DNA of 64,000 nt from Polyangiaceae bacterium (GTDB lineage: Bacteria; Myxococcota_A; Polyangia; Polyangiales; Polyangiaceae), in NCBI GenBank assembly GCA_035063585.1, contig JAPSGB010000018.1, positions 1 to 64,000 on the forward strand. The letters are read 5' to 3'. The translations under genes and the position numbers were made by a program. The notes below the pieces were generated by a model. It ran no database searches, had not been told where the DNA came from, and was given only the letters and a program-made list of their open reading frames with translations. Below, one piece after another: positions 54,096 through 64,000 of this stretch; position 1 is the first letter of the stretch; each line of letters opens with the position of its first letter.

Positions 54096-55432
54096 GCGCG
54101 CGGGAGGGACTTGGCCAAGCGGTCGTGCTCTGCGGCGGGCAGGGGCTCAGGCTGCAGCGCGTCCTCGGCGAGACGCCCAAGCCGCTCGCGCCCATCGCGG
54201 GCGAGCCGCTCCTCGGGCATCTCCTCGAGGGTTTGGGTCGGTCCGGCGCGGAAGAGGTGCTGCTCGTGGCAGGACACCGCGCGGAGCATCTCGCGCGGGC
54301 GCTGCCGAGCGTCACGCCTCGCGGACTCCGGGTCGAGCTCATTGTCGAAAAGGAGCCGCGAGGCACTGCCGGCGCGCTCCTCCAGATCGAGCAGAAGCTG
54401 CGGGAGCGCTTCCTCCTCGTCTACGGAGATCTCTTCACTGACCTTGATTTTCGCACCTTCGCGAGAGCCGCCGGCGCGCGCGGCGGGCTCGGGACGCTGC
54501 TCGTCCACCGATCGAGCCACCCCGAGGACAGCGACGTGCTGGCCGTCGACGACGCGCAGCGGGTGATCGCGTGGCTGCCGCGTGGCCCCGCGCGTCCGCC
54601 AGGCGCGGTCGTGAGCGCCGCGGCGCTCACCAACTCGGCGGTGGGTGCGTTTCACCGCTCGCTGCTCGACTACATCCCTCGCGATCGCGCGTGCGACCTC
54701 TACGGCGAGGTGCTACCGGCGTTGATCGACGCGAGGGCGAGCGTTCACGGCTACCTCTCCTCCGAGTACGTGCGCGACATCGGGACGCCAGAGCGCCTGT
54801 CCGCGGTGGACGCCGACGTGCGAGCCGGGAGGACCCGGCGACGCGCGGACATCGCGTTGCTCGATCGCGACGGGGTCTTGTCGCCCGAGGCGCCGCCGCT
54901 GGTGGATCGCCGAGCGCGACTGAGCCTCCTCCCCGGAGCCGCGGCCGGCGTACGGGCGCTGAATCAGGCCGGGCTCCGCGTGGCAGTGGTCACCAACCAG
55001 GCGATCGTCGCGCGCGGACTCTGCACGCCGAGTGGGCTCGAGGAAATTCACGATCGTCTCCGCGAGCTTCTCGCTCGAGAGGGAGCGACGCTGGACGCCA
55101 TCTACGCGTGCCCACATCACCCGGAGACTCATCACCCCGGCGGCGTGGCGGCGCTGCGGGGCCCGTGTCGCTGTCGCAAGCCCGCCACGGGCATGGTCGC
55201 CGACGCGCTGCGCGACCTCGCGGTCCCGGCCTGGCGTGCGCTCGTCGTGGGCGACTCGTCGGTCGACCTGCAGCTCGCGCACAACGCCGGCCTCGCGGCG
55301 GCCGCGGTCGCCACCGGGCAGGGCGGGCGCGACGGCAGGCACCCTGCGCGACCCTCCTGGCGCTTCGCGGATCTCGAGCATGCGGCCGCTTGGATCGCGG
55401 GCGGCGAGGCGAGCGAGCCCGACGTCACGTGA
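54092..55432 (+). CDS. Fusion of sugar-1-phosphate nucleotidyltransferase (HddC-like) and heptose bisphosphate phosphatase (GmhB-like)
   Basis: LCGGQGLRL, PKPLAPI, GTAGAL, YGD, DIGTPER; then LDRDGVL, VTNQ, CPHHP, CRCRKP, VGD. Confidence 0.9.
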   Translation: MSAREGLGQAVVLCGGQGLRLQRVLGETPKPLAPIAGEPLLGHLLEGLGRSGAEEVLLVAGHRAEHLARALPSVTPRGLRVELIVEKEPRGTAGALLQIEQKLRERFLLVYGDLFTDLDFRTFARAAGARGGLGTLLVHRSSHPEDSDVLAVDDAQRVIAWLPRGPARPPGAVVSAAALTNSAVGAFHRSLLDYIPRDRACDLYGEVLPALIDARASVHGYLSSEYVRDIGTPERLSAVDADVRAGRTRRRADIALLDRDGVLSPEAPPLVDRRARLSLLPGAAAGVRALNQAGLRVAVVTNQAIVARGLCTPSGLEEIHDRLRELLAREGATLDAIYACPHHPETHHPGGVAALRGPCRCRKPATGMVADALRDLAVPAWRALVVGDSSVDLQLAHNAGLAAAAVATGQGGRDGRHPARPSWRFADLEHAAAWIAGGEASEPDVT

Positions 55433-58400
55433 TAGACTCGGCCCGCGTGCACGCGATCGGTCCGGTGACGAAGGTCGAGCAAGAGCTCCTCCAGCTCGAG
55501 CTCGGGCTGAAGTCCGCGCTCAAGGTCGAGCACGCTGGCCCCGAGCTGGAGGCCTGGCTGCGCGCCGAGGCAGCGCGTCGTGGGCTCTCGGTACTCCCGG
55601 ACCGGGAGCCGACGCCCTCCTACGCGGGCGTCGAGGCGGAGCTCGCCACCTCGCTCTTCGTCGGTCCGAACGAGGCGCTCCTCGCCGAGCTGCGCGAGTG
55701 GTCGCATCGCCAACGCGACCCGCACGCGCAGAGCAGCGACAAGGCGGCGGCCATTCGCAGCATCGGCGCGGCGCTCGGATATCCGAGCTGCTGCGTCGAG
55801 GCCTACATCGCAGGGCGGGAGTTTCCGGACCAGTCGCTGGTGTTCCTGCGGCCGTTGTTCGCGACGAAGGGCACTCTAGAGCCTCTGCTCAACCTCGCCG
55901 GAAACGACGAGCTCATCAGTCATGTACCGTGCAGCTACGGGTGCGGAGCGAGCTTGGAGCTCGCGCGACGCACCGCGCACGAGCTCGAACGACGAGAGCC
56001 GAGTGTCTGGCACGCGCGGTGGGCGCGAATGTGTGCGCCGGTGCTCGTCCTCGGGCCACGAGGGCTGGTTCGCCTCGAGCCGCGCCCGGACGACGCGGCC
56101 ACTTGGGGCGGAGTACGCTACGCGAGGGCAGACTCCTCCATGCTCTCCGACGACGCGCTCCGAGCGGCGCTCGAGAGCGGCGACGAGCTCGTGCTTCGAC
56201 CGAGCTCGGTCGAGATCAGGCGCGGGGGGCAAGCGACCTACCGCGAGCGGCGCGCGGGTCCGCTGGACCTTCCTGTCCTCCTCCGCTTCGGGGGCGCGGC
56301 TCGTCGCCCGGCGCGGGTCGCGTTGGTAGATCTTCACCGGTCGCTCATCGACTACATGGACACGATGACGCTCGCGATGGCGTCGGGCGATCTGACACGG
56401 CTCGGCGTGTCGAACGAGCTCGTCCGGCTGTACGTCGATCGCGAGAGGCCGGAGACCTGGGAGAGATCATACCTTCGTCTGGAACGGTACTTACTCGACC
56501 ATCAGTTCACGGCCGCCGTCTGGAACATGGCGTTCGACGACGGGGTCGTCTCGCGACTCGGCCGCGCGGGGATGCTCCAGGTGCTCATCGACAGCCGGTT
56601 CTCGGGCGCCGCCGTCCCCTTCGATTTCGTGCTGACCTCGGCATCCCGCCAGGCGTTCTGCCGATTCTTCAGGCTCTGGTGCGAGGGAGAGGAGGATCCG
56701 GAGGTTCGTGAGCTCCTCTCACACAAGAGCGATGGTGGCTGGAGCTCCCACGCCCTCGCGGAGCCGTTGGCGCAGAGGGCGCGCATCGATGAGGACTCCT
56801 TCTGGCCAACCACGCAGTACGTCGTGCCGGACGGCGAGCACCGGCCGGCGAGCGACGTCTGGCACTTGTGCGTGAACCCCGGGTGCCCGTATGGCAAGCG
56901 GCTCGACGACAACCCTCATTTCGAAGGGCTCGAGCTCCCGGACTCGGCGAGCGCGCGCGGGTGCTCGTTCTGCGAAGAGGGCGGCGACTACGAGGGCGCT
57001 CCCGCGGAGCCGACCATGCGGGGGCTCCTCCACCAGTTCGAGTACATAGCCAGGCGCGCGCCGCACTCGCGCTTCATCCTGCTCGAGCGAGCCGTCTTTC
57101 GCTTCCTCGAGCGCTTCCTGGTGCGCGCCGATCAGATCTCGCGCGGCTCCGCGCGCCGCGGTCAGCGGCTGGAGTTCTTCGTGACCGCGCGCACGGACGA
57201 GATCGTCCGCGAGCAAGCACATCTCCGCGAGGCGCTCGTGGTAGCCGCCGAGCGCGGCCTATTGGTGAACCTCTACCTGGTCGGCATCGAAAGCTTCTCG
57301 CAGACCGCGCTCGATCTCTTCAATAAGGGCACGCGTGTGGAGGTTCAAGTCGAGGCCATCGAGATCATGCGCGAGCTCGAGGCGGCGTTCCCCGGGACGT
57401 TCACGGCCTCGCGGAGCTCCGCGCACGGCTTCATGTTGTTCACCCCATGGACGACCATGGCCGAGCTCGTGGAAAATTGCGAGTGGATGGAGCGCACTCG
57501 GTTCTGGGAGTTTCGCTCGGAAGCCACCTTGAGCAAGCTCCGGCTCTACCCGACGGTACCTCTCTTCTACAAAGCTCGCGCCGAGGGGCTCCTCGCCCCG
57601 GGGTACGACGATGAAGAGTTCGACATGTCGATCCGCCTCGGCTACTCGAAGGAGGTCCCCTGGCGGTTCATCGACGCGAAGGTGGAGGCCGTGTATCGGC
57701 TGCTGGCCGCGGCCGCCGATCACTATCCGCGGGGTTCCCGTGAGCTCACGTTGCTCCGTGACGCGATCGCGGAGGTCGAGACGCACGGCACCGAGGTCGA
57801 CGCCGAGACTTTTCACGCTCCTCGCCGCGCCCGGCGCGCCGTCCGACCCGGCCTCGGCCGCCCGCGACGCCGGCGCTTCACCTTGGCCCTCGGCTCGCGC
57901 TCGAACCTCGGCTGCACCTACTACGACCATGGAGACGAGGCTCCGCCACCGCCCCGCGAGGAGCTCGCACAGCGGCTGCTCGACGGGCGGAAGACCGGCG
58001 AGAGCGCGGTGACCCTCGGGGGCGCCGAGCCGCTGCTCTCGCCCTCGCTGATGTTCGCCGTGCGAGCTGCGCGGCGGTGCGGATACTCGAGCATCGCGCT
58101 CGAGACGAACGCGCTCGGGCTCGATACGGCGCGGATGACCGCGCTCCGCGAGGCCGGTCTCACACGAGTGCTGCCGTTCCTCCCGGCCTGGGATCGCGAG
58201 CCGATCGACCGCATCGCGCGCGTAGCAGGAGCCGCGGCGCTGCTCTTCCGCGCCGCGCCGGCAATCGAAGGCTCGGGGCTCGAGGTCCAACCGGTGATTC
58301 CCGTCGCTCGGGAGACGCTCGCAGAGCTGCCGCGCTTCGTCGAGCTGGCAGAGCTCCTGTTCCCCTCGGCTCGCGGGCTCGCGCTCCGCTTCTTCCCGTC

Positions 58401-58719
58401 GGAGGGCACGCTCCCCCACGCGCGCACGGATGGTCCAGGTGAGCGTCCGCTCGTCCGCTTCGTGGAGGCGGCCGACAGCGCTGGCCTCGGCGTGACTCAG
58501 GTCGCGGACGTGATCGTCCCTCCGTGCGCGTTCTCCGACACGCGCGCGCTCGAGGGGCTCATGGTGCTCGACACCCCACCGTCCGCGGACTTCCGCCGGA
58601 TCCCGGAGTGTAGCGGCTGCGCGCTCGTCGAGCGGTGTCGCGGGGTCTCGGAGGGATTTGCGCGCGCGTTTCCGAACGCGCCGCTCACCTCGGTGCGCTC
58701 CAAGCTACCGGCGCAGTGA
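55429..58719 (+). CDS. Multidomain protein (~1096 aa): DUF483-like domain, class-B-like radical SAM (CX25CX2C) and degenerate radical SAM/SPASM domain
   Basis: GTGA-coupled start; LGYPSCCVE, SHVPCSYGC; GCPY...RGCSFC, GIESFS, FNKG, FMLFTPWTT; SNLGCTYY, GGAEP, ETNA, CSGCALVERCRG. Confidence 0.75.
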   Translation: MIDSARVHAIGPVTKVEQELLQLELGLKSALKVEHAGPELEAWLRAEAARRGLSVLPDREPTPSYAGVEAELATSLFVGPNEALLAELREWSHRQRDPHAQSSDKAAAIRSIGAALGYPSCCVEAYIAGREFPDQSLVFLRPLFATKGTLEPLLNLAGNDELISHVPCSYGCGASLELARRTAHELERREPSVWHARWARMCAPVLVLGPRGLVRLEPRPDDAATWGGVRYARADSSMLSDDALRAALESGDELVLRPSSVEIRRGGQATYRERRAGPLDLPVLLRFGGAARRPARVALVDLHRSLIDYMDTMTLAMASGDLTRLGVSNELVRLYVDRERPETWERSYLRLERYLLDHQFTAAVWNMAFDDGVVSRLGRAGMLQVLIDSRFSGAAVPFDFVLTSASRQAFCRFFRLWCEGEEDPEVRELLSHKSDGGWSSHALAEPLAQRARIDEDSFWPTTQYVVPDGEHRPASDVWHLCVNPGCPYGKRLDDNPHFEGLELPDSASARGCSFCEEGGDYEGAPAEPTMRGLLHQFEYIARRAPHSRFILLERAVFRFLERFLVRADQISRGSARRGQRLEFFVTARTDEIVREQAHLREALVVAAERGLLVNLYLVGIESFSQTALDLFNKGTRVEVQVEAIEIMRELEAAFPGTFTASRSSAHGFMLFTPWTTMAELVENCEWMERTRFWEFRSEATLSKLRLYPTVPLFYKARAEGLLAPGYDDEEFDMSIRLGYSKEVPWRFIDAKVEAVYRLLAAAADHYPRGSRELTLLRDAIAEVETHGTEVDAETFHAPRRARRAVRPGLGRPRRRRFTLALGSRSNLGCTYYDHGDEAPPPPREELAQRLLDGRKTGESAVTLGGAEPLLSPSLMFAVRAARRCGYSSIALETNALGLDTARMTALREAGLTRVLPFLPAWDREPIDRIARVAGAAALLFRAAPAIEGSGLEVQPVIPVARETLAELPRFVELAELLFPSARGLALRFFPSEGTLPHARTDGPGERPLVRFVEAADSAGLGVTQVADVIVPPCAFSDTRALEGLMVLDTPPSADFRRIPECSGCALVERCRGVSEGFARAFPNAPLTSVRSKLPAQ

Positions 58720-58721
58720 CG

Positions 58722-60398
58722 CTATTTCTCGAGCTCGGGCTCCTCGTCGACCACCGGCTCGAGCGCGGCGTAGCCGTGCGCGCGCACGAAGTTGATGTGA
58801 ACGCCAGGGCATGTCGAGTCATACTTGCAGGTCTGGCAGCGGCGGCTCTTGGTGTAGAAGCGATCTGCCACGAAGCGGTGCGTGAAGTGCGTCATCTCGA
58901 GCTTGGCGTCGAGCCCGAGCATCCCCGCATCGAGCGCTGAGCCAATCGCCAGCGGCTCACGGCCTCCGATGCACGGGGGAATGTTCTCGGTCTCGACCTC
59001 GGGGGGGAGCGCGGCGAGGAGCGCGCGAACGTCCACGTCATTGCGCCGTTGCTCCGTCACCCGCTCGTAGTTCGGCTGCACCACGATGAGGCGCGGCGCG
59101 GTCGAGCCGAGGCGACGCAAGGCGTCCGCCGTGCCCTTGTTCGCGTAGACGGCGACCGTGAAATCACCCGGGACCTCGACGAGCCGCGTGAGCTCCTCGC
59201 AGCTGCTCACGTAGCAGCGCTCGAGATGCTTCCCGCCGAGCGTGCCGTCACCGGCGAGCGCGTTGGCGAGGCCCGTGTAGTCGGTGAGCTCGAGCCAGAG
59301 CGCGGGCGCCTTCGCGAGCTTCGCGAGCTCGAGCGCGCGCTCGACGGAACCCGCGACCACCCGCACCACCTTCGCGCTCGGGAGGGTGCCCGGGGCCGGC
59401 GCTGGATCCTCGAGCCGAAGGACGTCCACCTCGCCGAGCCTGCGCTCCTCGATGACTGCGTCGAGTGTGTCGCAGAGGGGGCTCAAGTAGCAGTAGTGAC
59501 AGCGCTCCGGCTGCCGGCAATGCAGCGGCTCTCCGGTAGCGAGGTACTTGTCGTACTCCTCGCGCCGTCCCCTCACCTCGTCGTGGAGTTTGTGCGGGTC
59601 TTGGATGAGCTCTTCGAAACCCTCGGTGAAGGGCGGCGGAAAGCGGTTGAGCCAGATATGGATGTCAGGACGACGCGAGTATTCGAACGCCTCGCGGAGG
59701 GACTCCTCGTTCCCTTCGAGGTCATAGAACAGATGCTCTCGAGCTTTCCCCCACGCGCTCCCGAACGGGATGATGTGGAGGAGGTCGAACTCCTTCACGC
59801 CCCAGCCGATGAAGGTATCGAGCATGGTGGGGAGATGCTTCACGTTCTGCTTGTTGATGACGATGTCGACGTTGACGATGAACCGACCGTCGGCGAGCGC
59901 GGCCTTGAGCCCGGCCGTCTCCTCTACGAACGCGCCCGGCGTCCCGACCAGCGCATCGTGGAGCTTCGGGGTGTGCCCATGGAGAGAGAACGTGATCTCG
60001 TCGAGCCCGTTTCGCGCGGCCGTCTCGAGGAAGTCGGGGTACGCGAACATCCTGCCGTTCGTCACCGTCTGCACCTTGGGATAACCCGCTCGCTTCCCGA
60101 GCTTCACGAAGTCGAGAAAGTTCGGGTGCATGGTCGGCTCGCCTCCGCTCAGGATGAGGCGCGCCGCGCCCTTCTTTCGCCCCTCGATGATCTGGACCTT
60201 GATGTCCAGATTGGCGCGCATGGTGCCGTTGTGCGCCATGGTGTCGAGGCAGAACGAGCAGTGGTTGTTGCAATCGTAGCTGAGCCGGACCCAATTTCTC
60301 TTCTCGTGGGCGGCTTGCTCGTGATCCTCGACCTTCTCGAGATCGTCCGCGGCGGAGGTCAGGGTATTCGGAGCGACGGCGTCGTGTTCCGCAATCAT
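58722..60398 (-). CDS. Radical SAM protein, HxsC-like paralog 3 (probable core maturase)
   Basis: CNNHCSFC, LSGGEPTMHP, TNGRMF, CRQPERCHYCYLSPLC, TKSRRCQTCKYDSTCPGVHIN; ATGA-coupled to the methyltransferase, in the same-strand run with the precursor. Confidence 0.9.
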   Translation of the reverse strand: MIAEHDAVAPNTLTSAADDLEKVEDHEQAAHEKRNWVRLSYDCNNHCSFCLDTMAHNGTMRANLDIKVQIIEGRKKGAARLILSGGEPTMHPNFLDFVKLGKRAGYPKVQTVTNGRMFAYPDFLETAARNGLDEITFSLHGHTPKLHDALVGTPGAFVEETAGLKAALADGRFIVNVDIVINKQNVKHLPTMLDTFIGWGVKEFDLLHIIPFGSAWGKAREHLFYDLEGNEESLREAFEYSRRPDIHIWLNRFPPPFTEGFEELIQDPHKLHDEVRGRREEYDKYLATGEPLHCRQPERCHYCYLSPLCDTLDAVIEERRLGEVDVLRLEDPAPAPGTLPSAKVVRVVAGSVERALELAKLAKAPALWLELTDYTGLANALAGDGTLGGKHLERCYVSSCEELTRLVEVPGDFTVAVYANKGTADALRRLGSTAPRLIVVQPNYERVTEQRRNDVDVRALLAALPPEVETENIPPCIGGREPLAIGSALDAGMLGLDAKLEMTHFTHRFVADRFYTKSRRCQTCKYDSTCPGVHINFVRAHGYAALEPVVDEEPELEK

Positions 60399-61321
60399 TC
60401 GCGTGTCTCCGGGAGTCTCTGATAGTGAAGTAGCCACTGGTTGCTGGTCGAGGGTGCGATCTCTCGCCGCTCGAGGAGGGCGAGCGGGGCTCGGGCGAGC
60501 AGCGCGTCGACCTCGCGGGTAGAGTCATTGCGAAAGTGCTCGAACCTCGCCGAGCTCGCCTCGGCGCGCGCCACCTGCGCGCGCGTCCGCACCAACCCGA
60601 ACGCCACGTTGTCCACGACGAGCAGCGTCCCTCCCACGCGGAGCCTGGTGATGACCGAGCGAAGCGTCGCGTCTGGGTCCGGCAGGTGGTTATAGCTCCT
60701 CAGGATGAGCGCGTGGTCGAAGCGCGCGGGCGCCTCGCCCAGCGCGTCGAGCTCCCCCACCTGGTAGTCAGCCCAGGGGTAGCGCGACCTTAGCACCGCG
60801 ATCCGACCGGCGTCCGGATCGAGCCCGAGGTAGCGGACCTTGCCCGTCATCGCGCGCGGCGTGAGCGCGTCGAGGTATGGGCCCTCGCCGCAGCCGACGT
60901 CGAGTACGTCCCCGTCGAGGGAACGGAGCAACTCGCGCACCCGCGCGTCATCGCGCTGGAACACATCGACCGAGACGGCGTGGAAGCAGCCCGGGCAGCG
61001 CTCGCGAAGCTCGCAGTCACGACACTCGGCGTCTAGCTCGAGCTTGCGCAGATCGGCGGAGAAGTCGTCCGGGGCGAGCTTGGTCGAGATGTCGACGTAG
61101 AGCTGCCCGAACTCGTATTTTGTGTCCGCGACCTCTCCGGGAGAGAAATCGGTCGTCGCGGTGCGGTGGAGGCGCATCCGATCGCGGAGCCGCACGAAGA
61201 CGTCACGGAGCGGCTCGACACGCGCGAGCGGCGCGCCTCCGCTCCGCAGCGGACACGCTCCCCGAGCGCTGCGCGGGACGTCGAGGACTGGCTCGAAATT
61301 GAAGGAGTTCGAGCGCGTCAT
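60395..61321 (-). CDS. Class I SAM-dependent methyltransferase with N-terminal Cys cluster
   Basis: CRDCELRERCPGC then VLDVGCGEG, GLDPD, SYNHL, GGTLLVVD; start is ATG 61321 or GTG 61369. Confidence 0.8.
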   Translation of the reverse strand: MTRSNSFNFEPVLDVPRSARGACPLRSGGAPLARVEPLRDVFVRLRDRMRLHRTATTDFSPGEVADTKYEFGQLYVDISTKLAPDDFSADLRKLELDAECRDCELRERCPGCFHAVSVDVFQRDDARVRELLRSLDGDVLDVGCGEGPYLDALTPRAMTGKVRYLGLDPDAGRIAVLRSRYPWADYQVGELDALGEAPARFDHALILRSYNHLPDPDATLRSVITRLRVGGTLLVVDNVAFGLVRTRAQVARAEASSARFEHFRNDSTREVDALLARAPLALLERREIAPSTSNQWLLHYQRLPETRE

Positions 61322-61406
61322 GACATCGCCCCTCGCGGGGACCGGATCTCGAAGATCGATCGCGCCCACGAGGCAAGGATAGCAAAATTGTGACGTTACG
61401 GCAGAT

Positions 61407-61700
61407 CTACCAGGAGCCGTGGCTACCGTGACTGCCATGGCTGCCGTGGCTGCCGTGGCTGCCGTGGCTGCCGTGGCTGCCGTGGCTGCCGTGGCTACCG
61501 TGGCTGCCGTGGCTGCCGTGGCTGCCGTGCGAGCAGTGCTGGGCGGGAATGACGCCGCCGCTGTCACCGTCGACGCCTGGCGCTTGATCGCAGTTGTCTC
61601 GAGCCTTGTCGATGACGGCGTCTTCCGACTTGCTGAGCATCCCGCGCGCGCTGCGGGTGAAGCTCGGCAGGTTCCCGGGGTTTCCTCTTCGCGTGCTCAT
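61407..61700 (-). CDS. hxsA: His-Xaa-Ser repeat precursor peptide (HxsA-type)
   Basis: 97 aa: 54-aa leader then HCS-(HGS)13-W. GGAGG RBS 5 nt upstream. Repeat variants are all synonymous in this frame. Adjacent to HxsD-like and radical SAM genes. Confidence 0.9.
   Translation of the reverse strand: MSTRRGNPGNLPSFTRSARGMLSKSEDAVIDKARDNCDQAPGVDGDSGGVIPAQHCSHGSHGSHGSHGSHGSHGSHGSHGSHGSHGSHGSHGSHGSW
61413..61529 (-). repeat. 9-bp tandem repeat x13 (CAC GGC AGC = His-Gly-Ser)
   Basis: gctgccgtg units on the + strand, with variants gctaccgtg, actgccatg and ggagccgtg. Confidence 0.95.
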
Positions 61701-61728
61701 GTGCGCCTCCCGTCGATGCCGTGCGGCT

Positions 61729-61953
61729 CTAGCCCATTCCGGTGCGGTGCTGCTCGATGGTGGTACCGAGCGCGTAGTTGGAGAACTCTTCTGCGATCAT
61801 GGCCTCGTCAGCGTCTCCGGTGGAGGTCAGCTTGACGAAATAGACGCCATCCTTCTGCTCGAGCTCGAACTTCGCGTAATCGGCATAGACCTTCACCGCG
61901 GCGTCGACGGCAAAGCCCGAGTAGAGATCGGCGCGGAAGCGGAGCTCGGTCAT
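61729..61953 (-). CDS. Short HxsD-like protein
   Basis: 74 aa, LRFRADLYSGFAVDAAVKVY...AEEFSNYAL; resembles the N-terminal part of the neighbouring HxsD; TGATG-coupled. Confidence 0.7.
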   Translation of the reverse strand: MTELRFRADLYSGFAVDAAVKVYADYAKFELEQKDGVYFVKLTSTGDADEAMIAEEFSNYALGTTIEQHRTGMG

Positions 61954-62459
61954 CAGTGCTTGTCGGCGGGCACCGACCCTCCGTCTTCGCTTGGCTCCGA
62001 GGAGGCCTCATCGCCAGCCTTCATCTTCACGTCGCTGCCCTTCTTCTTGTACTTGTCTTCCCAGCTCATCGCGATTCCGAGCGGATCCTCGAAGGCCGTC
62101 TCGTCGTCGATGTCCATCGCCAGGAGATCGTCGAGCCCGGGCGGCCCGGCAGCGCCCGCGAGGGCCTGCGTCGTGACCTGCTCGATGAGCTGCCGATTCT
62201 CCTCGACGATCTGCCGCCGCCACGCCTGACCAAGCAGCTCGTTCTCGAACTCGCCCGCGAGCTCGCCGAGCTCGCGCTCGACGCCCGGCTTGAGCTTCAT
62301 TCGAACCGACACGCGCGAGGGTGACGGGCGGTCCAAGTGCACATAGCAGCGATCGATGAAGATGTAGGCGGCGCCGTAGATGGCGTCTTTCGGGTAGAGC
62401 GCCTCGTCGAACTCGAGGACGAGGGTATCGGTGTCGATGGTCTTGTCGACGTTGGGCAT
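61953..62459 (-). CDS. hxsD: His-Xaa-Ser system protein HxsD
   Basis: FDEALYPKDAIYGAAYIFIDRCYVHL...AGEFENELL...RRQIVEEN pattern matches my recollection of HxsD; context next to the HxS precursor. Confidence 0.8.
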   Translation of the reverse strand: MPNVDKTIDTDTLVLEFDEALYPKDAIYGAAYIFIDRCYVHLDRPSPSRVSVRMKLKPGVERELGELAGEFENELLGQAWRRQIVEENRQLIEQVTTQALAGAAGPPGLDDLLAMDIDDETAFEDPLGIAMSWEDKYKKKGSDVKMKAGDEASSEPSEDGGSVPADKH

Positions 62460-62478
62460 GACGGTTCGAATTTCTGGG

Positions 62479-64000
62479 TTACTGACTCGCCACGACGGTG
62501 AACTGATTGCACTCGGGGGTTCCCCCGCCGCCGGTGACGTTGGTGCGGGTGATCTTCACCCAGATCGATGCTGGCACGAGCGAGTTGTTCGTGCACGCCC
62601 CGAGGCCGCTCCCCAGGCCGCACGCGATGGCATTCGTGAAGTTCATCGACCACGTGATGATACCACTGCCGCTGCCCACGCTACCGCCGGGGAGCACCCC
62701 CCCCGCCTGGGGGCAACTGATCGGGGTGCTCGGGCAGCTCGAGAGCACGTCCATCCGGTAGTCCGTGGAGCCCTGGGTCAGCTCGATCTTCCGCACCGAG
62801 TTCACACCCGGCGAGGCCCCCGAGAAGGTCACCACGAAGTACGCGGCGTCGTTCACGCTGAGTAGCTGGCCGGTGAACGGCGACCCGACCGCCAGCGCGC
62901 TGGCGGTCGCGCAGTTGTTCGGGGTTGGGTTCTGGCTGCAGCTCTTGGCCTCGCAGCCGTCGCAGTAGTTGCCGTTGTTGTCGTACCACCCGAGGTCACA
63001 ACCGCCGATCTGGCAACTCCCGCTGCACTGGATGGAGGTCACGTGCGGGAGGGTCGAGCCTCCAGCGCAGCCGCGGATGCACATGGTGCGCGGATCGTCC
63101 TCGTCCGAGGAGCCGTCACAGTCGTTGTCCTTGCCGTCGCAGAGCTCTTGGGTCGCGCTGTTGTCGGGGACGCAGCTCAGCGTACCGGCGCTGCACAGCG
63201 AGTGGCCGGTCGCGCACACCCCCGGCTGAGCGGTCATGCACGGGACGTTGTTCAGACCCTCGTCGGTGTTGCCGTCGCAGTTGTCGTCGAGGCTGTTGCA
63301 GCTCTCGGAGCCCGGATAGTTCATCTGCGGACAGCTCAGCTGCCCGCCCGCGCAGACCCACTTGCTCACGGCGCAGACGCCCTTCTGACCCGACACCTGG
63401 CAGTCGGTACCGAGCTGCGGATCGGTCGGGTTGTTATCGACCTGACCGTCGCAGTTGTCGTCGAGGCCGTTGCACATCTCGGACGAGGGTAACGACTTCT
63501 GGATACACTCGACCTTACCGCTCTGGCAGGCCGTAGTTCCGAACGCGCAGACACCCTGCGCGCCGGTGTTGCAGTTGACGCCACTGCCCGGGTTGCCTTC
63601 GTCGACCGAACCGTTGCAATTGTTGTCGAGACCGTCGCAGGTCTCGGGCGACGGCTGGTTCTTCGACACGCAGATGAGCATGCCGTTCTTGCACTGAGTG
63701 GTGCCCTCCGCGCAGACGCCCCTGGCTCCCGAGACCGTGCAGTCGCCACCGCCGCCCGGGTTGCCTTCGTCGATCTGTCCGTTGCAGTTGTCGTCGAGAC
63801 CGTTGCACACCTCGGTACGACACGAGCAGGAGTTGCACGCGCCGCCGGAGCCGGCGCTCCCGCCGGTACCGCTCGCACCGGAAGCGCCCGCCTGACCGGC
63901 GACCCCGCCTGCACCGGCCGCTCCAGCCTGACCGCCGCCACCAGCCTGACCGCCGCCACCAGCCTGACCGCCGCCACCAGCCTGACCGCCGCCACCAGCC
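62479..64000 (-). CDS. Cys-rich protein with MopE-like putative metal-binding repeats (5' end outside window)
   Basis: Five ExC(N/D)xxD(D/N)(N/D)C(N/D)G repeats. The frame stays open upstream of 63810 through an (AGGGGQ)n linker to the window edge. Confidence 0.82.
   Translation of the reverse strand, partial: AGGGGQAGGGGQAGGGGQAGGGGQAGAAGAGGVAGQAGASGASGTGGSAGSGGACNSCSCRTEVCNGLDDNCNGQIDEGNPGGGGDCTVSGARGVCAEGTTQCKNGMLICVSKNQPSPETCDGLDNNCNGSVDEGNPGSGVNCNTGAQGVCAFGTTACQSGKVECIQKSLPSSEMCNGLDDNCDGQVDNNPTDPQLGTDCQVSGQKGVCAVSKWVCAGGQLSCPQMNYPGSESCNSLDDNCDGNTDEGLNNVPCMTAQPGVCATGHSLCSAGTLSCVPDNSATQELCDGKDNDCDGSSDEDDPRTMCIRGCAGGSTLPHVTSIQCSGSCQIGGCDLGWYDNNGNYCDGCEAKSCSQNPTPNNCATASALAVGSPFTGQLLSVNDAAYFVVTFSGASPGVNSVRKIELTQGSTDYRMDVLSSCPSTPISCPQAGGVLPGGSVGSGSGIITWSMNFTNAIACGLGSGLGACTNNSLVPASIWVKITRTNVTGGGGTPECNQFTVVASQ
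63924..64000 (-). repeat. 18-bp tandem repeat (AGGGGQ linker)
   Basis: cagcctgaccgccgccac, at least 4 copies, truncated by the window end. Confidence 0.88.

Follow-up and report, generated by a model that had tools for sequence, protein, structure and literature searches.

The stretch of DNA analysed here, referred to below as the window, comprises 64,000 nucleotides from a Polyangiaceae bacterium (GenBank assembly GCA_035063585.1, contig JAPSGB010000018.1, positions 1 to 64,000). Near its right end lies hxsA4, a short gene whose 97-amino-acid (aa) product carries an unbroken run of His-Xaa-Ser (HxS) units. Judged from sequence comparison, the open reading frame (ORF) at 61407-61700 is a genuine HxsA4-family gene, under selection and conserved. 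Its parts, numbered by window position, are as follows.

61407..61700, minus strand: hxsA4, encoding a 97-aa His-Xaa-Ser repeat protein; ATG at 61698-61700, stop codon TAG at 61407-61409
61539..61700, minus strand: leader, residues 1-54, with the motif LPSF-x5-GMLSKSEDAVIDKA and the junction ...PAQ/H, from an alignment of 44 distinct relatives
61410..61538, minus strand: core, consisting of HCS, 13 x HGS and a terminal Trp
61706..61710, minus strand: ribosome-binding site GGAGG, 5 nt ahead of the ATG

The script split of the ORF placed GGVIPAQ at the end of the leader, followed by HCS, 13 HGS units, W and TAG, and the string upstream of the gene ends in GACGGGAGGCGCAC. The 54-aa leader, the HCS-(HGS)13-W-stop core and the GGAGG site had all been described in an earlier sequence-only reading of this DNA (the initial annotation), which was exact in every detail. 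Read by eye, the leader holds no hydrophobic segment. The core contains 14 His in 43 residues and neither Lys nor Arg. Tandem Repeats Finder reported a single array at 61416-61529 with a period of 9, 12.7 copies and 92% matches. Against the family model NF038313, "His-Xaa-Ser repeat protein HxsA4", the ORF scored 112 bits (cut-off 55) over profile positions 2-93 of 93. Because of this match the ORF is not a new kind of gene: HxsA4 is an already catalogued branch (NF038313) of the radical S-adenosylmethionine (SAM) His-Xaa-Ser systems, and NCBI already labels some proteins of other phyla with the same name. Pfam found no domain above cut-off in the product, the Collagen model alone appearing at 23.8 bits (cut-off 27.2). 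A literature search, with most subscription journals outside its reach, found nothing experimental on HxsA4 or on His-Gly-Ser repeat peptides.

Codon usage within the array points to protein-level selection, as far as sequence can speak to it. The array uses CAC 13 times and CAT once, GGC 11 times and GGT twice, and AGC 11 times with AGT, TCC and TCG once each. All of these variants are synonymous in the HxS frame, whereas in the +1 frame, which reads TAATAATAATVATAA...MAVTVATAPG, the same variants alter residues; the initial annotation had noted this difference between the two frames, and the codon count agrees with it. For the unit CAC-GGC-AGC only 5 of 27 single-base changes are synonymous, whereas every variant seen is, and the pattern is therefore more than chance.

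A six-frame scan of the whole genome (5.14 Mb, 79 contigs, 71% G+C) recovered one second HxsA4-type ORF, also of 14 units, on the minus strand of contig C13 (60318-60611; 111.3 bits on NF038313). Over the whole ORF the two copies differ at 26 codons synonymously and at 12 by replacement, with 8 of the 12 replacements falling within the first 10 residues. Across residues 55-97 there were nine synonymous differences and no replacements. Of these, six exchange the serine codons AGC and TCG, a switch beyond the reach of one single base change. That the repeats of the paralogs differ only synonymously, even through such switches, is strong evidence for maintenance of the peptide and not of the DNA repeat. 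The initial annotation had argued for a real, selected peptide rather than a slippage artefact, and its case is upheld by the synonymous-only variation, the paralog and 47 related ORFs.

The C13 copy is an orphan, directly downstream of pyruvate,phosphate dikinase (ppdK) and glyS. Placement beside ppdK recurs in loci L060, L071 and L076, making four genomes in all. Segmental duplication was rejected as the origin of the two loci, blastn matching the gene alone (84% over 243 bp). A 470-aa ORF beside the orphan copy has no family match and looks like an antisense artefact; it was set aside.

Family anatomy was assessed in the 47 related ORFs, which hold 44 distinct leaders. Repeat number, which the initial annotation had proposed to compare among homologs, ranged from 9 to 37 units, most often 15-16; the arrays open with an H[C/A/S/T/G]S unit and run to a terminal Trp. 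The first unit was HCS in 32 ORFs and HAS in 12, with HSS, HTS and HGS seen once each. The terminal Trp was present in 46 of 47, the sole exception running off its contig. Among the distinct leaders the pattern LPxF...L...E.(I/V)SD(K/R)A was kept, usually with AQ before the first His. In five relatives from Polyangia (L079, L084, L086, L087, L099) a twin-arginine (Tat) signal of the SRRxF type replaces the leader, and in forms from Omnitrophota and Elusimicrobia (P0028, P0049, P0055), two of which NCBI already names HxsA4, a KxFLxSEEG motif and a hydrophobic anchor take its place. Most of what a broad protein search brought up was metagenomic fragments, among them some of only 2-4 units (real or assembly-collapsed); the search missed the Polyangia relatives and was not used for counts.

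The gene stands within a set of minus-strand genes in the order MopE-type lipoprotein, HxsD, HxsD-like protein, HxsA4, methyltransferase and radical SAM enzyme, with a stem-loop after the hxsA4 stop.

58722..60437, minus strand: 571-aa radical SAM enzyme (Pfam Radical_SAM), with CxxxCxxC at C56/C60/C63
60395..61321, minus strand: class I SAM-dependent methyltransferase (Pfam Methyltransf_25, _23, _12, _11)
61316..61395, minus strand: stem-loop between the hxsA4 stop and the methyltransferase start, RNA fold -46.3 kcal/mol
61729..61953, minus strand: HxsD-like protein, 74 aa (NF038315, 71.1 bits; cut-off 41)
61953..62459, minus strand: HxsD, 168 aa (TIGR03976, 61.8 bits; cut-off 50), HxsD domain at residues 17-103
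62479..64000, minus strand, continuing past the window to C18:64254: Cys-rich lipoprotein with MopE-type putative metal-binding repeats (PF11617, 87.3 bits)

In the lipoprotein a lipobox, LAGGC, is accompanied by consecutive GGGGQA repeats and by numerous CNGxDDNCDG repeats of the MopE type. Aligning 24 sequences of the 571-aa enzyme revealed two further invariant Cys groups, C307/313/316/322 and C489/534/537/543. The stem-loop had a z of -2.5, with 2 of 200 shuffles folding equally well, and its 3' arm overlies the Shine-Dalgarno-like GAGGGG before the methyltransferase ATG (61319-61321); as modelled, it could damp expression of the enzymes relative to the peptide. A sigma-70 promoter scan of 58500-64000 gave 0 sites. 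Terminator-like sites in the same interval numbered 3, compared with 2.3 expected, and none lay on the minus strand after hxsA4.

Near-identical DNA (97-98% of sampled words) was present in 14 DNA runs from sludge, wastewater and bioreactor metagenomes, and five runs that contain part of it are registered as RNA. One RNA run, X15, yielded a 2450-nt contig that covers 61503-63952 with 0 mismatches and spans lipoprotein, HxsD, the HxsD-like gene, the whole hxsA4 leader and the first four units. Repeat contigs of 39 nt were found in RNA runs X15, X16 and X19. Contigs from RNA libraries may include DNA, with strand, ends and level invisible, and stretches lacking such cover say nothing about silence. 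Contig depth was 39-64 over lipoprotein, HxsD and leader and 3-8 over methyltransferase and radical SAM gene; such depth cannot rank genes. The contrast fits more transcript upstream of the hairpin, and no claim is built on it.

To place hxsA4 among its partners, 301 genomes of the class Polyangia were compared. HxsA4 was present in 79 (68 over cut-off), the 571-aa enzyme in 74 and the radical SAM protein HxsB in 85; all three occurred together in 72 genomes and none of them in 212. HxsB was found in 75 of the 79 HxsA4 genomes and in all 74 genomes with the 571-aa enzyme, and it lay within 1 kb of HxsA4 in 39 of 74 tabulated genomes. These counts overstate independence, because the genomes are kin. 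By lineage, the system occurred in 35 of 46 genomes of one family and in 0/46 and 0/23 genomes of others. The radical SAM and HxsD context that the initial annotation gave the peptide is borne out by the operon matches and by this co-occurrence.

Relatives of the 571-aa enzyme were collected from 49 Myxococcota loci at 56-80% identity; a 50th hit, archaeal and at 25%, was left out. Carriers that can be cultured include Chondromyces apiculatus DSM 436, Polyangium fumosum DSM 14668 and Minicystis rosea DSM 24000. The methyltransferase adjoins the enzyme in 45 of the 49, and the HxsD-like gene stands upstream in the same arrangement in 14. Where related loci carry HxsD, the MopE-type lipoprotein precedes it in most. 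An HxsA4 ORF at the junction of HxsD-like gene and methyltransferase was seen in only 3 of the 14 comparable loci. The initial annotation had expected an HxS ORF to be conserved at this position in homologous loci: the position proved empty in 11 of the 14, and the gene itself was found elsewhere, over cut-off and with 12-17 units, in all five of the genomes tested that lack it at the junction. The empty junction does not speak against the gene, since these genomes encode HxsA4 at another site.

Four distant compact clusters each contain HxsD, HxsB, HxsA4 and a homolog of the 571-aa enzyme. In 2-4 of the four there are also homologs of the HxsD-like protein, of the methyltransferase, of a Tat-signal protein and of each of the radical SAM proteins of 268, 342, 608 and 1027 aa. 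The host genes for these additional proteins all lie on the contig of the window, at 39-80 kb. In genome G222 an HxsC4 gene (613.8 bits) directly follows hxsA4. HxsC4 was over cut-off in G222, G208, G147 and G175, and three genomes of the host's own family are among the carriers. Genomes G001 and G306 (loci L011 and L018) share the window's gene arrangement. Taken together, synteny and co-occurrence across genomes make the proposed link of HxsA4 to HxsB, HxsD and the other partners well supported.

HxsB (TIGR03978) is encoded twice in the host genome, on contigs C30 and C3, at 548.4 and 546.9 bits (cut-off 370). The two genes (L008 7950-9452, plus strand; L009 7273-8772, minus strand) stand without neighbouring HxsC, HxsD or HxsA, and one of them adjoins a protein-kinase-like gene. 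HxsD (TIGR03976) is present as a single gene. Pfam searches to E 1 on HxsB, HxsD, the HxsD-like protein and the Tat-signal protein gave only Radical_SAM, Fer4_12 and weak SPASM matches as informative.

The HxsB structure was modelled from 6 sequences (mean predicted local distance difference test score, pLDDT, 68). The model begins with strands at residues 22-27, 30-35 and 40-44 followed by helices at 45-52, 58-66 and 76-92; three strands and then three helices is the layout of the peptide-recognition domains in maturases of ribosomally synthesized and post-translationally modified peptides. No Pfam match to this N-terminal domain was found at E up to 1. The best solved match was CteB (E 4.6e-15, 487 columns, full-length), and further matches included anSME, TigE, ChlB with leader, SuiB and SkfB.

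HxsD was modelled with confidence over residues 10-90, as four strands, one short helix and one long helix. Its best matches were the RNA polymerase subunit Rpb11/L (template modelling, TM, score 0.3-0.56) and, more weakly, type III secretion chaperones. Beyond the HxsD domain the alignment showed an invariant C-terminal tail, DPLGIAxSWExKY (residues 125-137), which is the most conserved part of the protein. The tail holds the same Ser-Trp pair that ends HxsA4. A predicted complex of the 571-aa enzyme with HxsD(1-140) reached an interaction prediction score from aligned errors (ipSAE) of 0.61, and the best of 3 controls reached 0.00. That mark is attained by 116 of 157 solved complexes and by 2 of 215 mismatched pairs, counts that hold only roughly, as custom alignments served as input. 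Runs shared at least 69% of contacts, with partner pLDDT of at least 69. The predicted interface pairs HxsD 109-137 with enzyme residues 55-59, the CxxxCxxC loop, and with 100-110 and 129-136. The prediction thus supports binding of HxsD by the 571-aa enzyme. We know of no solved HxsC-HxsD complex.

The closest experimental precedent is a four-gene HXS system of E. coli that blocks phage DNA entry (Li et al., Nat Commun 2026; PMC13128918, available in part). In the accessible text, mass spectrometry places a +8 Da change on the SHRSS motif of E. coli HxsA; the change was mapped to one motif yet was not reconstituted. An HxsC-HxsD complex was shown by pull-down, and HxsA was periplasmic after HxsBCD-dependent processing (PMC13128918). 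Canonical HxsA, as described there, has a signal peptide and a peptidoglycan-binding domain, and the proposed model relies on repeats rich in basic residues. The genes run HxsD-HxsB-HxsC-HxsA with HxsB and HxsC adjacent, and the system is patchily spread, with 99.7% in Pseudomonadota (PMC13128918). A 2022 paper in the Journal of Biological Chemistry, also available in part, cites Haft and Basu for the prediction of HxsB and HxsC (PMC9062424).

The window locus shares with canonical HXS an HxS repeat protein, radical SAM enzymes and a small HxsD, here predicted to be bound by the 571-aa enzyme. It differs in that HxsA4 is only 97 aa long, with 14 contiguous neutral HGS units and no signal-peptide or peptidoglycan-binding domain, in that no HxsC is over cut-off, HxsB is unlinked and a methyltransferase and extra radical SAM genes are present, and in a distribution that follows Polyangia lineages. 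Within the HxsA4 family, the leader, the H.S-(HGS)n array and the terminal Trp are as in 46 relatives, and HxsD and the HxsD-like gene are adjacent; here, however, hxsA4 is flanked by the HxsD-like gene and the methyltransferase gene instead of following hxsB, no HxsC4 is over cut-off, and there is an extra orphan copy. With the SPASM peptide maturases (CteB, SuiB, SkfB, ChlB, TigE) the system has in common the HxsB fold, full-length with CteB, and a conserved leader on the peptide, although the likeness to HxsB is in fold only, at 13-21% identity.

Triceptides, three-residue cyclophane peptides, carry a C-C crosslink that costs 2 Da (-2 Da) per three-residue motif, and the initial annotation had raised this chemistry for HxsA4. 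Like them, HxsA4 repeats a three-residue motif that begins with an aromatic or heteroaromatic residue, and it lies near radical SAM enzymes. The change measured on an HxS motif was +8 Da, however, not -2 Da (PMC13128918, available part). No triceptide maturase family was among the best 25 of 39 NCBIfam matches of the 571-aa enzyme. A triceptide-type crosslink in the HxsA4 units is only an analogy.

We consider it likely, with a probability of about 0.7, that HxsA4 is the ribosomal substrate of a multi-enzyme radical SAM maturation system, that its leader guides the enzymes and that its His-rich tail is exported. As read from gene content, the putative system is scattered in the genome: its own operon, radical SAM and Tat-signal genes on the same contig, and the two HxsB genes on other contigs. 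In such a system the conserved leader LPxF...L...E.(I/V)SD(K/R)A would dock on the N-terminal domain of HxsB. Modification of His and/or Ser in each HxS unit would then fall to the radical SAM enzymes and the methyltransferase, after the manner of E. coli HxsA, with HxsD as an adaptor on the 571-aa enzyme, its invariant tail modelled at the enzyme's cluster loop. The leader would be removed near the conserved AQ/H junction, and the His-rich tail may work outside the cytoplasm, a reading prompted by the Tat signals or membrane anchors that replace the leader in relatives. For modification, leader guidance and exit from the cytoplasm we argue by analogy, with the E. coli findings, the fold of HxsB and the relatives' export signals as the basis.

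A number of findings weigh against this proposal. The 571-aa enzyme scored 116 bits on HxsC4 (cut-off 500) and 90.5 on HxsC (cut-off 267.9), and identification as either was rejected on scores so far under both cut-offs. HxsC4 was moreover the top NCBIfam match, at 73-113 bits, of every other radical SAM protein scanned in the surrounding gene island, and the label is therefore unspecific. By sequence profile the nearest solved relative is BlsE, a sugar-nucleoside decarboxylase, and for this reason the enzyme might act on a small molecule. The enzyme that the initial annotation had named for expression with the peptide (58722-60398) is this one, and a place in HxsC or HxsC4 is not supported for it. 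In the host genome as a whole, HxsC (TIGR03977) was not found over cut-off (best 100.1 bits against 267.9), nor was HxsC4 (NF038332; best 165.6 against 500); because the genome is 93% complete, the absence of HxsC4 is not proven. HxsC4 over cut-off was likewise not found in the relatives G154, G001 and G306. The two HxsB genes are unlinked to the window locus, with no HxsA-like ORF beside either, and only 5 of the 49 loci have an HxS ORF within 8 kb of the 571-aa enzyme. The modelled HxsD does not look like a known peptide-recognition domain. Kinship among the genomes and possible DNA in the RNA libraries, described above, belong here too.

What the matured product does is a separate matter. 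An envelope function tied to metal binding, in company with the co-transcribed MopE-type lipoprotein, is our tentative preference over phage defence, held at a little under even odds; the hints of metal are the His content and the neighbouring MopE-type protein, and these are its sole grounds. A role of some other kind, neither envelope and metal nor defence, is a substantial possibility, if somewhat less probable. In a more elaborate and speculative version, which we regard as rather unlikely, the array would be no defence effector but a polymeric substrate, each unit rebuilt by at least six co-conserved radical SAM enzymes (HxsB, the 571-, 268-, 342- and 608-aa proteins and a 1027-aa protein with B12-type matches) and the methyltransferase, giving an exported metal- or redox-active chain that acts with the MopE lipoprotein, and the 571-aa enzyme would read its Ser-Trp end. 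HxsD could be a built-in substrate mimic or gatekeeper, because its tail at the cluster loop shares Ser-Trp with the ...HGSW terminus of HxsA4.

One rival explanation holds that matured HxsA4 sits in the periplasm and blocks phage DNA entry as E. coli HXS does. The parts are homologous (an HxsA-type repeat protein, HxsB and HxsD), some HxsA4 relatives bear export signals, and the sole experimental Hxs work, in its available text, shows broad antiphage activity requiring all HxS repeats (PMC13128918). HxsA4 itself, however, lacks a peptidoglycan-binding domain and a signal peptide, and its core is free of Lys and Arg. Its stable inheritance by lineage and the ppdK synteny in four genomes are unlike the patchy HXS, and the genes around the locus form a biosynthetic island and not a defence cluster. 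PADLOC found only generic viperin-like radical SAM and methyltransferase matches, from a 2023 library that is older than HXS. Because the core has no basic residues and there is no wall-binding domain, and because of the lineage inheritance and ppdK synteny, we lean away from phage defence and regard it as unlikely. The array could instead be a multi-copy precursor: repeated-core precursors occur in other peptide natural-product pathways, and each HGS unit might be converted and excised as a small His-derived metabolite or cofactor. The free variation in unit number with a fixed unit sequence would suit such a precursor, as would the many co-conserved radical SAM enzymes and the methyltransferase, and TigE, a structure match of HxsB, belongs to a pathway whose target is a repeated TVG motif (PMC9062424, available part). 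Against it, the loci examined yielded no gene for a protease or peptidase that is conserved alongside HxsA4, the invariance of the first unit and of the terminal Trp points to an array that works whole, and the modified E. coli protein stays intact as the effector in the accessible account (PMC13128918). We judge excision improbable.

Slightly less probable again is that HxsA4 is an unmodified His-rich peptide for metal binding or storage, its radical SAM association being incidental. The density of His in the core, the neighbouring lipoprotein with MopE-type putative metal-binding repeats covered by the same RNA-library contig, and the orphan copy beside housekeeping genes are all in keeping with this. 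To our knowledge, however, His-rich metal-binding proteins, with their high and regular His density, are neither leader-bearing nor tied to radical SAM maturases, whereas HxsB accompanies HxsA4 in nearly all of its genomes (75/79) and is often adjacent (39/74); a conserved leader would also be hard to explain without a recognition step. A collagen-like triple helix of (Gly-Ser-His)n is very improbable. Gly does fall at each third residue, and the weak Pfam Collagen match is joined by weak matches to collagen-like adhesins, but the Collagen score is under the Pfam cut-off and the array has no Pro. In the Omnitrophota and Elusimicrobia forms, Gly is replaced by Ala or Ser (HAS, HSS) in many units while His and Ser are kept. 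Because Gly gives way in other phyla, the unit is H-x-S and not a collagen-like Gly-X-Y. Least probable of all, to the point of being negligible, is that there is no gene here but only a 9-bp microsatellite, open by chance, within the 5' region of the gene for the methyltransferase. The array is open in two further frames too, but its variation is synonymous-only, including the six serine switches between paralogs, the leader and terminal Trp are kept in relatives (46/47), the family model matches strongly, and the methyltransferase starts downstream at 61321, as it does in relatives with no array.

The proposal of a leader-guided, radical SAM-matured HxsA4 matters for its chemistry. HxsA4 offers a handle on how radical SAM enzymes act on His-Xaa-Ser motifs: the soluble-looking 97-aa protein would be a convenient substrate, because its 14 units multiply any per-unit mass change fourteen-fold. 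The HxsA4 branch is larger than its four-gene HXS relative, is inherited by lineage in Polyangia and can have its genes scattered; for these reasons its role may be something other than phage defence. The find itself is a modest one, since NCBIfam and PGAP already name the family.

The island in which the locus lies contains at least 10 radical SAM genes at about 35-80 kb of the contig (window 34662-58719 and C18:64001-83900), of which two show B12-type domains or matches and two encode double-domain proteins of very large size. It also holds a carbamoyltransferase, a Trp-halogenase-like FAD enzyme, glycosyltransferases and a GDP-heptose-type set (a SIS isomerase, a nucleotidyltransferase/HAD phosphatase and an epimerase). 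The sugar genes (heptose pathway, glycosyltransferases, carbamoyltransferase) were rejected as parts of the HxsA4 system, having no homolog in the four distant clusters. The Tat-signal protein of the island (182 aa, C18:65091-65639, minus strand) bears the signal SRRFVVG and has no family match. In a protein atlas its best match, 0.76, was to a "twin-arginine signal" cluster, a lead only, and structure comparison gave TM <0.5. In other lineages, genes homologous to it adjoin that of HxsA4 or that of the 268-aa radical SAM protein. On the plus strand, the ORF at 54571-58719 (up to 1382 aa, start uncertain) has one radical SAM domain near its C-terminus besides a further, weak one. This ORF and the gene of the 571-aa enzyme converge, their stops separated by only 2 bp; the ORF is conserved in loci L011 and L018.

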